The notes: generated from the sequence alone by a model not told the origin. A DNA stretch of 64,000 nt from an uncultured Candidatus Saccharibacteria bacterium (GCA_964610055.1 CAZSUC010000001.1:216867-280866); one strand, 5' to 3'; positions 3,311 through 53,603 are shown, counted from the stretch's first letter. Numbers and translations: made by a program.

Positions 3311-4207
3311 TCACTTTTTCGGGCCTTTAGAGGCATCTCCAGCAGCATCACTTTCATGCCTCAAGCTTTCAACAGTGTCTTTCGCAGCACCGCGCAATGC
3401 TGCCGCTATAATAGCAGCAACGCTTCGATTTGGATTCGGTTCAGTCAAAGCTACCGCCTCTTGTGTGGTCAGATGGTCACCCCTCTCGTCAGCAATGTCA
3501 GTCAAGACTTTTGCTGCTTCTCCGGCAAGCTTAGCCTTTTCTTTCTGTTCGATGCGGGCTTGCAAATCTGCCGATTTTGGGACTAAATTCGTCACTCGAA
3601 AGCTCAGGCAAGCTAACCCTAAAGGGCCAACGGTAATGTTCAATTGCCGCTCAACTTTGCGAGCAATCAAGACATATAATTTTCTCGCAGTTGTCCCATA
3701 CTCGCTAGGCCTGAGCAAGTAGTCGCTCTGAAGACCTCCGCACACTCTCTCAACTATCGCCGCTGCATGATCTTGCATGATTTTCAGATAATCTTGAAAA
3801 TCAATAAGAGTTGCAGCTCGAATCACAGCATCGTCAGTGACGCCTCCTTCATGATTAGGATCGCCGATAACCTCTCCTTTGTCATCCACCGCACGTCCCG
3901 CAATCGCATCAAAGCGATAGTCAATTAGCAGTACGACTCCGTTAGAGGCACGAATCTCCTGCTTCTCGACTCTAATGGGTTTGCGGTTCAGATCAATTCT
4001 GGTCAAGACCTTAAAGAGAAACATGAAATGCAGGCCTGGACTCAAGACTTTCAGATTGCCCCTCAGGCCTTGTAAAACCAACCTCTCCCTCTTACCCGGT
4101 TCCACTACGAAAGAGAAATGCTCCCGAATCTCCATCAAAATCACAGCAGTGCCAGCGATTACATGTACCAACAGCAAAAAAACCATCAGCTTGTCTGCGT
4201 TGTCCAT
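3311..4207 (-). CDS. SPFH/band-7 (stomatin/HflK-like) family protein
   Basis: N-terminal TM helix, then a conserved SPFH core (…VVLLIDYRF…AVIRAATLIDFQDY…) and a C-terminal coiled-coil/Ala-rich tail. Confidence 0.7.
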   Translation of the reverse strand: MDNADKLMVFLLLVHVIAGTAVILMEIREHFSFVVEPGKRERLVLQGLRGNLKVLSPGLHFMFLFKVLTRIDLNRKPIRVEKQEIRASNGVVLLIDYRFDAIAGRAVDDKGEVIGDPNHEGGVTDDAVIRAATLIDFQDYLKIMQDHAAAIVERVCGGLQSDYLLRPSEYGTTARKLYVLIARKVERQLNITVGPLGLACLSFRVTNLVPKSADLQARIEQKEKAKLAGEAAKVLTDIADERGDHLTTQEAVALTEPNPNRSVAAIIAAALRGAAKDTVESLRHESDAAGDASKGPKK

Positions 4208-25547: not shown

Positions 25548-26141
25548 ATGAAGATATCCCATTACTCCTTCGCTATCGTTATGTTTAATGTATCGTTATT
25601 TGTTTTGGAAGTCCTTTGGTTTTTTCTGCCGGCTTTTGCTGGTAACATTGCCCCTGTCTTAGCCGCACATTATCATTGGTTGCCTCGTTTAAATTTGCCA
25701 TTGGATGGGGGAGCATATCTCGGTTCTAATCGCTTATTGGGGCAAAATAAAACTATTCGCGGTGTCGTTGTCGGTCTTTTAGCCGGTGCCTTAGTGGGCG
25801 GTTTTCAATTTATAATCGTTGCGCTCATTCCTGCCGAAGTTGTTGTAATTAATGCCTATCATAATTTAATTGGCGCTGTTAGCCTTGGTATGTTAATTAG
25901 TTGCGGTGCTTTACTTGGTGACGCTATCAAAAGTTTTTACAAACGACGCTTGCATATTCCCGCTGGTATTTCATGGAAGCCATGGGATCAAATTGATATT
26001 GTCATCGGTGTGCTGTTAGTAACCTTCCCTTTCTTTCCATTTTCATTATCACAATTTTTTCTCAGTTTAATTGTGATCGGTCTTGGCATGTTTATTATTA
26101 GTTACTTTGGTTTTCGTCTTGGCATCAAAGAGTCAATCTAA
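25548..26141 (+). CDS. CDP-archaeol synthase-like (CarS/DUF46 family) integral membrane protein
   Basis: 5-6 TM helices with PLDGG...GSNRLLGQNKTIRG, resembling the CarS cytoplasmic-loop motif. Assignment is from memory of family motifs. Confidence 0.4.
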   Translation: MKISHYSFAIVMFNVSLFVLEVLWFFLPAFAGNIAPVLAAHYHWLPRLNLPLDGGAYLGSNRLLGQNKTIRGVVVGLLAGALVGGFQFIIVALIPAEVVVINAYHNLIGAVSLGMLISCGALLGDAIKSFYKRRLHIPAGISWKPWDQIDIVIGVLLVTFPFFPFSLSQFFLSLIVIGLGMFIISYFGFRLGIKESI

Positions 26142-26312
26142 TTATTTTTCTACTTGTCCACTTATTCACAAAGTAATATTGAATTACATGCAAAAATTTG
26201 TTCTAATTACTAACAGTAATTATCTTCCTTCATGTTAACTCCAGCACTCGCTAACTTTTTTTCCGCATTTATGGATTTGTTATTAAATTCATCTATGAGA
26301 GGAGGTGGTAAA

Positions 26313-26483
26313 CATGCCAGCTAAAAAGAAGCGCACCGTAAAGAAGCGCACCGTTCGCAAGACCGCCAAGCGCAAAACGACTGCGCGTCGCAAGACCGCT
26401 GCTCGCAAGCCTGCGACTAAGCGCAAGACGACCCGCCGCAAAACGACGGCTCGCCGAAAGACCACCTCGCGCAAAAAGAAGTA
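26313..26483 (+). CDS. small lysine/arginine-rich histone H1-like DNA-binding protein (56 aa)
   Basis: Not in the ORF track (<60 aa). ATG preceded by GAGGAGGTGG with a 6-nt spacer. Encodes MPAKKKRTVKKRTVRKTAKRKTTARRKTAARKPATKRKTTRRKTTARRKTTSRKKK, followed by a strong terminator. The listed antisense ORFs 26289..26582 / 26293..26490 are rejected. Confidence 0.6.
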
Positions 26484-26504
26484 AGCGCAAGGACTTTCGA
26501 TCCT

Positions 26505-26540
26505 AAAAACAGGCTCTTTTAACAAGAGCCTGTTTTCTTT
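26505..26540. terminator. bidirectional rho-independent terminator
   Basis: AAACAGGCTCTT-ttaac-AAGAGCCTGTTT with a T-run on the + strand and an A-run upstream. Sits between the convergent genes 26313..26483 (+) and 26552..27169 (-). Confidence 0.6.
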
Positions 26541-26551
26541 TACCTCGGTAT

Positions 26552-45504: not shown

Positions 45505-46008
45505 ATGCTTAACGTTAAACCTTTCCAGGAGACTTTGCACGGTGGCTATTGTGGTCCAGCAAGCCTAAAAATGGTCTTAAACTATTACGGCCGAGATAAA
45601 AGCGAAGAAGAGATAGCTGTGCAATGCAAACGCGACCCCGATCTTGGCACTACCGATATTGCTCTTAAACAAGTCGCCGAAAACTATGGATTTGAAGTAA
45701 TTATCCAAGATAAAGCCTCGTTTGATGACCTAAAGCACTGGTTAGACCGAAAAGTACCTGTAATCGTTAATTGGTTTACTCGCGGTCGTTCGAACTATTC
45801 AGACTCTGAAGTTCCTGACGGTCATTATTCTGTCGTCATCGGTTTAGACGCTAACAACATCTATCTCCAAGACCCGGAAATAGGGAATATACGCACTATC
45901 AGCCGGGATAATTTCCTAAAAGTATGGTTTGATTTCAAATCCAGCCACATCCAATCATGGGAAGATTTAATCCTCCGGCAAATCATCGCCATTTATCCTA
46001 AAGAGTAA
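45505..46008 (+). CDS. stand-alone peptidase C39-like domain protein
   Basis: HGGYCGPASLKMVLNYYG (catalytic Cys context) plus downstream His (DGHYSVVIG) and Asp (QDPE), typical of the C39/C39-like papain fold. Confidence 0.6.
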   Translation: MLNVKPFQETLHGGYCGPASLKMVLNYYGRDKSEEEIAVQCKRDPDLGTTDIALKQVAENYGFEVIIQDKASFDDLKHWLDRKVPVIVNWFTRGRSNYSDSEVPDGHYSVVIGLDANNIYLQDPEIGNIRTISRDNFLKVWFDFKSSHIQSWEDLILRQIIAIYPKE

Positions 46009-51740: not shown

Positions 51741-53603
51741 CTAATCCAAAGGGTGGACAGAAAATCTTAGAGGCACATCCTTAACTTCAACGACACGAGT
51801 ATGCGGGAGCTGGTTGAACCCAAACGTCAAAGGAACAAACCAGGGACTCAGGAGCCGCACCACCCTCAATCCCTGTACCTCACCATACGCAACCGAGTAC
51901 AGCGCGTCAACACCTAATTGTCGACACACTTTGACAACGTCGGCGCTTTCAACAACCTCTTCGGAAAAGCAAGGCTTCGTTAACTCTGACTCTGAAAAAG
52001 TTGTTGAAGACCACAAAAAAGAAGCTGAAACCAAGTTTTCAGGATTGTTAAACCAGCACGCATGGTCATCTGGCGTCCTAACGTCCTGTAAGGCAATTCG
52101 CGGCTTTTCTTCCATGTGCATTGCCGGATCCAGTAACCGGCAAAACAATCCTACCTCAGCTTCTTTCCAAGCACTCAGCAGTGCTTCTTGGACAGTGTTG
52201 CGCGCAGCTGCGCCGCAAATCATCGCCGGCCAATTGTTTCTCCGCAAGACTACTAGCATCGTGGGTACGATAGTCTTGGATATATCAAGGAAATCCACCT
52301 GATATCCAAGTGACCGCACCTTATCGCATTCCGCGACGAGGTCTCGGGGAATCATGCACTCAGACAATCGTGACGGAGGCTGGCGAAAAATCCAGGTTTT
52401 CATGAACGCATCGCGTTCAATGAGCTCTAATAGCGCCGAAAACTGCGCTTTCGCAACAGACATTCCAGCAGCCATACCAGAAGAGTTCGCCCAACGGCAT
52501 CTTTGCTTGTAAGAATGCGGTTGGAAAGGGTAGTAACACAAATCAGCAAGAATCCGCACTTCCTGACCAGTTATAACACTAATGGCATTGCGCCAATAGT
52601 ATTTGCAATCTGGTTTAAAAGGGCGCAGCTCCGCATCCTCGCATTGGCTACCAGTCAAGTGATACAGGGAATCGGGGTCAATCCGATTTTTGCTTCCATG
52701 CAATGACCCATATTCAAGTCCATGAGTATTGTATTTTCCAGCCGCATGCCTCTCCAAAGCTTCTGCGGACGAAACCAAATGCGCTGTGAGCCTATCCCTG
52801 TGCGCGCCACTTGCGACTGGATTACGTCTCCCGTCCCATTGTCCTTTTTGGCGATAGCGAGACATAACTATCGCCACAGACGGAGAAAATCCCGTGGACA
52901 AATCTGTGATTACAGATTGCTGAACCACAGAGCCAAATGGACCACAATAATGCCAATTCCCAACATCAATCCAATTAACTGTGCGCTCGCGGACACTAAT
53001 CTCGCATAGGCATTCATCCTCCGCTAACAAAGAGACAATCGTACTAGCAAGCCACTTACACGTGTCATGCTCAATAAAATTTTCTCCAGGAATAACTACC
53101 TCGCCCGTGTTCCAGAAAAGAGGGCGTGCCCTATCTAGCCAAACGCCAGCAAACGCCCACTCAATCAGCCGCTTAGCCAGAAGCTTTTGCTGTCGTGGTT
53201 TAGATAGCTTGGCCAACAGGTAAAGAGGGCCAAACCGGAAGCCTAAACCATAGCATTTCCCAGTTTTATTAAAAACTGGGAAATGCTGAAAAATTGGCAA
53301 ACCCGAGCAATTCTCTGCGATGTGCCAGTCAAGTCGATCAGGAGGTTGGGTATCCAAAACCCAGACTTGCTCTTGAATCAACAATGACCATAGCGACATC
53401 ATTTTTTCTGGGGGAACATTGCTTTGTTCAGCAAAATTCCAGACAATTACTTGATCAAGCAGGCCATTCTTATAACCTGCACACGCACGTAACAAGTGCG
53501 AGACCTGAGCATCAGCAATGGAAACCTCGTTCTGTAGACTTACGAACTCGGCCCGGTCACTCAGAAAAAACAGATCATATGTAGGGTTAAACCTAACAAT
53601 CAT
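51741..53603 (-). CDS. YcaO-domain cyclodehydratase (TOMM SagD/McbD-type) with ~230 aa N-terminal extension
   Basis: YcaO signature RWANSSGMAAGMSVAKAQFSALLELIERDAF (ATP/Mg-binding S...E..ER motif) and downstream conserved blocks. The N-terminal ~230 aa has no Rossmann motif and is a possible leader-binding/E1-like docking domain. Confidence 0.85.
   Translation of the reverse strand: MIVRFNPTYDLFFLSDRAEFVSLQNEVSIADAQVSHLLRACAGYKNGLLDQVIVWNFAEQSNVPPEKMMSLWSLLIQEQVWVLDTQPPDRLDWHIAENCSGLPIFQHFPVFNKTGKCYGLGFRFGPLYLLAKLSKPRQQKLLAKRLIEWAFAGVWLDRARPLFWNTGEVVIPGENFIEHDTCKWLASTIVSLLAEDECLCEISVRERTVNWIDVGNWHYCGPFGSVVQQSVITDLSTGFSPSVAIVMSRYRQKGQWDGRRNPVASGAHRDRLTAHLVSSAEALERHAAGKYNTHGLEYGSLHGSKNRIDPDSLYHLTGSQCEDAELRPFKPDCKYYWRNAISVITGQEVRILADLCYYPFQPHSYKQRCRWANSSGMAAGMSVAKAQFSALLELIERDAFMKTWIFRQPPSRLSECMIPRDLVAECDKVRSLGYQVDFLDISKTIVPTMLVVLRRNNWPAMICGAAARNTVQEALLSAWKEAEVGLFCRLLDPAMHMEEKPRIALQDVRTPDDHACWFNNPENLVSASFLWSSTTFSESELTKPCFSEEVVESADVVKVCRQLGVDALYSVAYGEVQGLRVVRLLSPWFVPLTFGFNQLPHTRVVEVKDVPLRFSVHPLD

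Follow-up and report, generated by a model that had tools for sequence, protein, structure and literature searches.

A conserved gene for a 56-residue hyperbasic protein in Andersenbacteria, with a possible role in DNA compaction

The gene and its expression signals

This work concerns a small gene in a 64,000-nucleotide stretch of DNA (hereafter, the window) from an uncultured Candidatus Saccharibacteria bacterium. The gene occupies positions 26314-26484 of the plus strand, with an ATG at 26314 and a TAA at 26482-26484, as read from the sequence and the listing of open reading frames (ORFs). The call draws on the ORF itself, synteny, an excess of third-position changes and codon use. The encoded peptide, MPAKKKRTVKKRTVRKTAKRKTTARRKTAARKPATKRKTTRRKTTARRKTTSRKKK, has 56 residues and a mass of 6.65 kDa. 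Of these residues, 30 are lysine or arginine (17 and 13, respectively), 13 are threonine and 7 are alanine; acidic, aromatic and large hydrophobic residues are absent. Upstream, on the same strand, is a gene for a membrane protein resembling CarS, of the CDP-archaeol synthase family (25548-26141; Pfam PF01864, E = 2e-25). Downstream, and convergent, is a gene for a conserved, all-helical protein of 205 residues, P0001 (26552-27169, minus strand). A first-pass annotation of the window had described the same K/R-T/A peptide, and our translation is identical; its coordinates for the gene, 26313-26483, were one base too low. It had also called the gene unannotated. This is so for the ORF track then in use, limited to frames of at least 60 residues, but not publicly: the gene calls on three public Logan contigs include the exact 56-residue peptide.

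The gene is preceded by a Shine-Dalgarno (SD) sequence, GAGGAGGTGG (26299-26308, plus strand), read directly from the DNA. Its 8-nucleotide core, AGGAGGTG (26300-26307), is a perfect complement of the canonical 16S rRNA 3' end, the textbook anti-SD. Five nucleotides (TAAAC) separate the SD from the ATG. Hence, the strong SD noted at first pass is confirmed, but the spacer of 6 nucleotides given with it is not. An in-frame GTG, at 26305, mechanically extends the ORF to 59 residues. We rejected this start because the codon sits within the SD and relatives all start at the ATG (M[PA][AT]KK). GGAGG was found within 20 nucleotides upstream of 1 of 51 large ORFs in the window, and AGGAGG upstream of none of the 51 other large ORFs; note that these counts are rough, since starts were assigned mechanically. 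The strength of the SD is unique within the 64-kb window. So is the composition of the product, this being the sole ORF of at least 30 residues with a K+R fraction of 0.38 or more.

Codon use is also distinctive. AAG specifies 13 of the 17 lysines, against an average of 23% in the large ORFs of the window, and CGC specifies 11 of the 13 arginines, against 27%. The GC content at third codon positions (GC3) is 0.71; the large ORFs average 0.36 and reach at most 0.58. Local GC content is 0.62 at the small gene and ~0.3-0.4 in the flanks, a spike that results from the AAG, CGC, ACC and GCN codons. Horizontal transfer was rejected as the source of this spike, since codon choice explains the GC content and the synteny of the gene holds throughout the clade. 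AAG takes a larger share of the Lys codons in the small gene than in its neighbours in each of the 22 long-type relatives (defined below) that were tabulated, giving 23/23 with the window; with short types included, its share is above that of the flanking genes at 26 of 28 loci. Unlike this preference, a high GC3 is not shared by every family member. Runs of A in the family genes rarely exceed 6 nucleotides. In E. coli, iterated AAA codons cut protein output by causing ribosomes to slide (PMC4363877). Hence, a bias towards AAG is expected for a lysine-rich protein that needs efficient synthesis.

The small gene and the 205-residue gene have a common bidirectional intrinsic terminator (26506-26545), identified by hairpin search and folding. 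The hairpin (26506-26536) has a perfect 13-base-pair stem, a 5-nucleotide loop and A-run and T-run flanks, and is followed by CTTTT on the plus strand. Read on the minus strand, the A-run is a T-run. The fold has a free energy of -21.7 kcal/mol (z = -4.4 compared with shuffled sequences). Since the hairpin is 16 nucleotides past the stop codon of the convergent 205-residue gene, it is able to terminate both genes. Stem, stability and position all agree with the perfect bidirectional terminator claimed in the first-pass annotation. A strong hairpin is also found immediately 3' of the stop codon in 23/23 long-type relatives folded. These hairpins are kept while their sequences differ between lineages, which is the signature of conserved terminator function.

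Upstream, the best sigma-70-like match in the 200 nucleotides before the SD is a putative promoter for the small gene (26179-26207, plus strand; 9/12), in which TTGAAT (26179-26184) and TCTAAT (26202-26207) are separated by 17 nucleotides. A stricter promoter scan of the window did not list this pair. Both hexamers recur at an equal distance in the closest relative, L005. Promoter-like elements occur 110-140 nucleotides upstream of the SD in many relatives, and TGCACA-17-TAYAMT is found at -137 to -140 in six loci. These matches are no more than suggestive of a promoter belonging to the small gene itself, which would give a 5' untranslated region (UTR) of ~100 nucleotides. No terminator was detected between the CarS-like gene and the small gene in the window, so read-through from the former is possible. 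An Rfam search returned no family at the gathering threshold or at E ≤ 1, terminator-like noise aside. The predicted fold of the 5' UTR scored no better than shuffled sequences (z = -0.25). In the minimum-free-energy structure, the segment CTTCCTTC (26224-26231) pairs with the SD (GAGAGGAGG), and L005 also has TTCCTTCATGTT upstream of its SD, placed a few columns further 5' by the alignment. Such pairing might sequester the SD, in a fold that scores as just described.

Conservation and coding frame

We identified relatives of the small gene through its surroundings. P0001 has 12 homologues, at 45-70% identity. On the contigs carrying them, the gene order is RecG, methylpurine glycosylase (MPG), CarS-like, the small gene, the 205-residue gene, a gene for a 224-residue protein, and VanW; the CarS-like, MPG and RecG assignments were confirmed by Pfam searches with the relatives' neighbours. 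Six syntenic orthologues were reached in this way, via the 205-residue gene, as short hyperbasic ORFs on the strand of the CarS-like gene. Complete examples encode 54 (L005), 35 (L002), 40 (L003), 37 (L004) and 38 (L006) residues. In L008, where the contig ends, only the 3' end of the gene (…KKRKTTSRRRKKK*) is present, with its terminator. Conversely, in L007, where the 205-residue protein is 47% identical to that of the window, the small gene is missing from its slot (3560-3700) and the CarS-like gene overlaps the end of the 205-residue gene. The small gene of L007 has, it appears, been either lost or moved. A scan of GTDB genomes that used the single 205-residue neighbour gave no match, the peptide patterns being too strict.

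When the syntenic loci were aligned as DNA, the most conserved block was A-AGGAGGTGG-A-NNN-ATG-SCA-RCY-AAR-AAR. Within this, GGAGGTGG is invariant in the six loci; further upstream, the DNA is unalignable. We searched with a DNA pattern for the SD and start region, GGAGGTGGYANNNATGSCNRCNAARAAR, which carries ~41 bits of information and, being strict, biases the recovered family toward members that share the SD and N-terminus. With one genome per GTDB species, there were 26 matches, 23 of which were followed by a K/R-rich ORF of 19-78 residues. Long-type proteins, of 40-78 residues and running from MPAKK[KR] to [KR][KR]xTS[KR]KK, accounted for 17 of the 26. Metagenomes from JGI and ENA gave 43 matches, 16 of them long-type. 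By tblastn, nearly every long-type locus has the 205-residue gene (31-53% identity to that of the window), the CarS-like gene (32-50%), or both. After removal of duplicates, there are at least 31 distinct orthologous peptides, of 35-78 residues, in the same slot between the CarS-like gene and the convergent 205-residue gene. Since the flanking proteins are only 31-70% identical, the small gene has been kept through deep divergence.

Most metagenome-assembled genomes with a long-type gene are titled Candidatus Andersenbacteria or Anderseniibacteriota; some are titled Saccharibacteria or 'bacterium'. The NCBI lineage of the clade is Patescibacteria group > Parcubacteria group > Candidatus Anderseniibacteriota. 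As far as we have seen, the family is restricted to this Andersenbacteria branch of the Parcubacteria, within the candidate phyla radiation (CPR, or Patescibacteria). The window thus comes from a CPR bacterium of the Andersenbacteria type.

Patterns of nucleotide substitution indicate which frame is under selection. When codons were aligned with the proteins as a guide, the window and L005 differed 7, 6 and 17 times at sense codon positions 1, 2 and 3; the corresponding counts were 5, 3 and 15 for L004 and L006, and 9, 6 and 23 for L003 and L004. Synonymous codon changes outnumbered non-synonymous changes. Frame-agnostic nucleotide alignments, summed over all pairs with at least 75% identity and leaving out the first 18 nucleotides (fixed by the search pattern), gave 520, 409 and 988 differences at the same positions; note that all such pairs are short, repetitive and non-independent, so the direction is informative and p-values are not meaningful.

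Two antisense ORFs, of 97 and 65 residues, lie over the gene in the window. The antisense frames are free of stop codons in 19/23 and 18/23 relatives, without a conserved start or SD. Open antisense frames are expected, because AAR, CGN, ACN and GCN codons hold no stops when read backwards. In the absence of a conserved start or SD, the two ORFs are artefacts of composition. Hence, we rejected them as genes; the block containing the SD and ATG, and the third-position excess, belong to the sense frame. The first-pass annotation had likewise called these ORFs artefacts, and had named conservation of the antisense frame, rather than the sense frame, as the result that would speak against it. The codon-position comparison favours the sense frame. 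We conclude, from comparison of sequences, that the small gene is real, conserved and under purifying selection in the sense frame, and that it is built for efficient translation.

Resemblances and possible roles

Across the 31 peptides, the composition is 40% K, 18% R, 15% T, 14% A, 4% S, 4% P and 2% V. Beyond these, there are only the initiator Met and a few Gly, making 9 residue types; D, E, F, W, Y, L, I, H, C, N and Q are absent from all 31 members. The N-terminus is MPAKK in 27 peptides and MA[AT]KK in the other 4, and all 31 have a C-terminal [KR][KR][TSA]-T-S-[KRS] motif. Between the two is an expandable array of 5-6-residue units, each with two or three K/R followed by two or three T/A/P/V/S (e.g. 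RKTAK, RKPAK and KKTTK). Accordingly spaced, basic residues have an autocorrelation peak at a lag of ~5 in the family and of 5-6 in the window protein, with irregular units of two or three basic residues. An AlphaFold2 (AF2) model of the single 56-residue sequence had no secondary structure (predicted template modelling score 0.14), consistent with disorder. Lengths in the family vary more than two-fold (35-78 residues) through gain and loss of in-frame repeats. A perfect 15-nucleotide tandem duplication in the window gene (26325-26354, plus strand; AAAGAAGCGCACCGT twice, encoding KKRTV-KKRTV), found by a repeat scan, evidently illustrates this process. It is the only DNA tandem repeat detected in the small gene. 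The variation in length, together with the absence of the gene from L007, argues for a non-specific binder rather than a fitted structural protein.

Database searches returned no family for the protein. None of the 209 candidates from a word-seeded HMMER search, which covered 5.8 billion proteins, was significant, and a full phmmer search against 1.84 billion representatives gave zero matches. Searched with phmmer, the PDB gave only a designed repeat protein (E = 1.3), and no ribosomal chain. There was nothing significant in Pfam, NCBIfam or PHROGs for the window protein or 23 relatives. HC2 was the only family to score at all: for Pfam PF07382, the window protein reached 12.8 bits (E = 0.13), against a gathering threshold of 40, and for NCBIfam NF038052 it reached 11.2 bits, against a cut-off of 135. 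Among the 23 relatives, two reached HC2 at E ≤ 1 in Pfam (the best at 0.0029) and one in NCBIfam. Neither the window protein nor any of the 23 relatives matched Hc1/HctA (Pfam PF07432), the N-terminal dimerisation domain, at E ≤ 1. Similarly, the winged helix of linker histones H1/H5 (Pfam PF00538) was not matched, and the protein has no hydrophobic core residues. Nor was there a match to bL34, bL36, bL32, bL33, bL35, bS21, bS22 or bTHX in Pfam, NCBIfam or the PDB. Exact look-up in a clustered protein collection found neither 11 family members nor the 59-residue variant with the GTG start. HMMER-type tools fail here because of low complexity.

The first-pass annotation had likened the protein to histone H1 and Hc1, and proposed a comparison with those families. 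The profile searches above give no significant match. What holds is the chemistry, namely basic residues spaced by ~5-6 and mixed with small or hydroxyl residues; membership of Hc1, Hc2 or H1 is not supported, at 12.8 bits against 40 for HC2 and with no Hc1 or linker histone domain. The closest parallels are with Hc2 (HctB) and Bordetella BpH1. Hc2 is built of pentamers with two basic residues and three of A, V, T or P, both proteins have length polymorphism caused by in-frame gain or loss of repeats, and Hc2 binds RNA strongly (PMC2848022). Like these proteins, the small family is Lys/Arg-rich, with a repeat region that is free of acidic residues, and it changes in length by the same route. 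The repeat region may also consist of consecutive 5-6-residue units like the Hc2 pentamers, though the units here are irregular and hold two or three basic residues. However, Hc2 has 165-237 residues, against 35-78 in the small family, and the protein here is 3-6 times shorter. Family members lack the 36-residue higher-order repeats and separate C-terminal domain of Hc2, have a higher charge density (54-63% K+R) and, in the window protein, are rich in Thr. The MPAKK and xTS[KR] termini are the family's own and not Hc2 features. Furthermore, the family belongs to another phylum, without a known developmental cycle.

Other parallels are looser. The C-terminal tail of H1, and H1-like bacterial tails such as the Hc1 C-terminus, are disordered polycations rich in K/A/P/T/S, thought to neutralise DNA charge. 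Such tails are also found on mycobacterial HupB/MDP1 and Pseudomonas AlgP. In contrast to H1, Hc1 and HupB, the tail here is free-standing, with no winged helix, Hc1 dimerisation domain or HU fold, and Pfam returned none of these families. Coxiella burnetii has small basic DNA-binding proteins, ScvA and Hq1, that are enriched in its small cell variant (PMC4766238). Like protamines, these go with condensed chromatin, and by their description they resemble the small family in being very small and highly basic. Animal protamines fall in a similar size class, but are dominated by Arg, whereas the small family is dominated by Lys. Unlike ScvA, Hq1 and protamines, the family has no known link to a developmental stage. 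Finally, bL34, bL36, bS21, bS22 and bTHX are alike in length, isoelectric point, strong translation signals and monocistronic or short transcription units. These ribosomal proteins differ in having fixed lengths and informative sequences; the small family is low-complexity, variable in length and without a profile match. We conclude that the resemblance to Hc2, the H1 tail and protamine is apparently one of chemistry only, with no demonstrable kinship.

The explanation that we favour, at slightly better than even chances, is that the product is an intrinsically disordered polycation of 56 residues, which binds nucleic acid and compacts DNA, and that its gene is monocistronic, with a near-maximal SD, a terminator and probably also a promoter of its own. 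The small basic protein would be made in large amounts and would bind the phosphate backbone of nucleic acids electrostatically, without sequence specificity. Neutralisation of charge would then allow the chromosome to be compacted in very small cells, in the manner of the H1 C-terminal tail, chlamydial Hc2 or protamine. Phosphorylation or other regulation may act on the Thr-Ser that is invariant near the C-terminus. DNA compaction is favoured because the family tolerates a more than two-fold range of length, like Hc2 and BpH1 and unlike ribosomal proteins, and because it is not linked to ribosomal operons.

Several points weigh against a DNA-compacting protein. We only infer abundance, disorder in vivo, nucleic-acid binding and a preference for DNA over RNA, all from sequence. 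The searches gave no statistically significant similarity to any DNA-binding family, the codon-position counts have the limits stated above, and the search pattern shaped the family that it recovered. The neighbours (CarS-like, the helical 205-residue protein, MPG and RecG) offer no functional pointer, and the synteny may be simply inherited. Polycations bind both RNA and DNA, as does Hc2, which makes the ribosome a credible alternative target, and Parcubacteria have an Ala/Lys-rich tail on ribosomal protein uS19 (PMC9297842).

If the ribosome is the target, the product would be a lineage-specific ribosome-associated or RNA-binding basic protein that neutralises rRNA phosphates in the reduced CPR ribosome. 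Small size, extreme basicity, a strong SD, a dedicated terminator and optimised Lys codons are all typical of small ribosomal proteins, and the conserved motifs at the two termini might serve for specific docking. Proteins and rRNA segments have been lost from CPR ribosomes, and the uS19 tail is a C-terminal extension gained in Parcubacteria (PMC9297842); polycations of the Hc2 type bind RNA well (PMC2848022). However, no ribosomal family in Pfam or NCBIfam was matched, nor any PDB chain, including those of ribosome structures. A protein fitted to one rRNA pocket would not usually vary more than two-fold in length, none of the loci examined places the gene within or close to a ribosomal-protein operon, and one relative, L007, lacks it from the slot. 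We think a ribosomal role credible but unlikely. Rather less probable, in our view, is that the protein is a general intracellular polycation, either substituting for polyamines or Mg2+ or binding anionic membrane lipids or polyphosphate. The sequence fits this idea in being pure charge, its middle part carrying little positional information. The lipid option also fits the conserved CarS-like CDP-alcohol/lipid synthase gene, upstream on the same strand, with no terminator detected between the two genes in the window. Yet the 110-290 nucleotides that follow the CarS-like gene contain promoter-like elements, so the two genes need not be co-regulated. The synteny extends equally to RecG and MPG, pointing to a gene order that was inherited, and the invariant terminal motifs argue for something beyond bulk charge.

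It could also be argued that there is no functional protein, and that the ORF is a by-product of a GC-rich repetitive DNA or RNA element, an antisense gene or a regulatory leader peptide. The sequence is low-complexity and repetitive, HMMER-based searches gave no homologue, and antisense frames are open, both in the window (97 and 65 residues) and in 18-19 of 23 relatives. Against this, the strong SD and ATG are invariant for the sense frame only, third-position and synonymous changes dominate that frame, the peptide termini are conserved, and neither the Rfam search nor the UTR fold (z = -0.25) points to a structured RNA. A leader peptide or attenuator was rejected, since the gene past the terminator is convergent, in the window and the syntenic loci examined, leaving nothing downstream to regulate. 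The comparative data thus appear largely to refute a non-protein origin, and we give it very little credence.

Returning to the DNA-binding polycation, a stronger version can be envisaged. In Andersenbacteria, these peptides of 35-78 residues might be the main counter-ion to DNA, serving as a bacterial 'protamine' that is regulated at its Thr-Ser and packs the chromosome into ultra-small CPR cells, or they might be a CPR-specific ribosomal protein not seen before. This we consider doubtful. If true, a major and abundant cell component would have been overlooked. Note that trypsin would cut the protein to peptides of 1-4 residues, hiding it from standard proteomics. CPR/Patescibacteria organise their chromosomes in cells near the lower size limit of life, and our literature search yielded no study that connects H1-like or nucleoid-associated proteins with CPR lineages. 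The small family is a concrete candidate, in the form of a 6.6-kDa peptide, for a role in chromosome organisation or in the reduced ribosome. It also exposes a blind spot: a clade-wide gene was missed by two HMMER-based searches of billions of proteins, and was recovered only via synteny and the DNA pattern of the SD and start region.

Neighbouring genes and other small basic ORFs

Nearly every locus with the small gene has the CarS-like gene upstream of it, in the same orientation. A gene of the CDP-archaeol synthase family (PF01864) is present in a bacterial genome and stands beside the small gene throughout the clade. The AF2 model of P0001 has a pLDDT (predicted local distance difference test) of 93; a structural search with this model gave no convincing match.

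The DNA pattern also recovered shorter ORFs. A second family encodes basic peptides of 21-29 residues (e.g. MAAKKKAKKTTKKKATKKKKK), with a GGAGGTGG SD, the same start context and a terminator hairpin of its own. Its loci are L018 (1523-1588), L025 (2532-2621), L026 (5827-5895), L043, L057, L060 and L065. The genes on either side run in the opposite direction in L018, L025, L026, L060 and L065. Those of L018 are CysS and PrmC by Pfam, with three neighbours matching each family. Titles in GTDB are Moraniibacteriota (L018 and L026) and Bdellovibrionales (L025). The family in the window may be related to these ORFs, which would then be a shortened form.

A third recurrent ORF, of 19-22 residues (e.g. 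MATKKSKKTTKKTPKAASKKGR), is found on GC-rich contigs (0.55-0.63) at L010, L017, L038, L044-L046, L048, L054, L056, L062-L064, L069-L072 and L076. Some contig names (e.g. LV_Brine) suggest brines. Among loci with neighbours scanned, this ORF follows an HVO_2753-like zinc-finger gene in L017, L044 and L063, and precedes an Hsp20 gene in L017 and L063. Downstream of it is a conserved GGGGAGCGGGC…GCCCGCTCCCC hairpin that lacks a T-run. Titles in GTDB are 'Thermotogae', but the neighbouring genes look haloarchaeal-like.

Elsewhere in the window, a gene of the YcaO cyclodehydratase family (51741-53603, minus strand) lies a few kb from a peptidase C39-like gene (45505-46008, plus strand). Together, these may form a bacteriocin-type locus, or one for ribosomally synthesised and post-translationally modified peptides (RiPPs), in a CPR genome.
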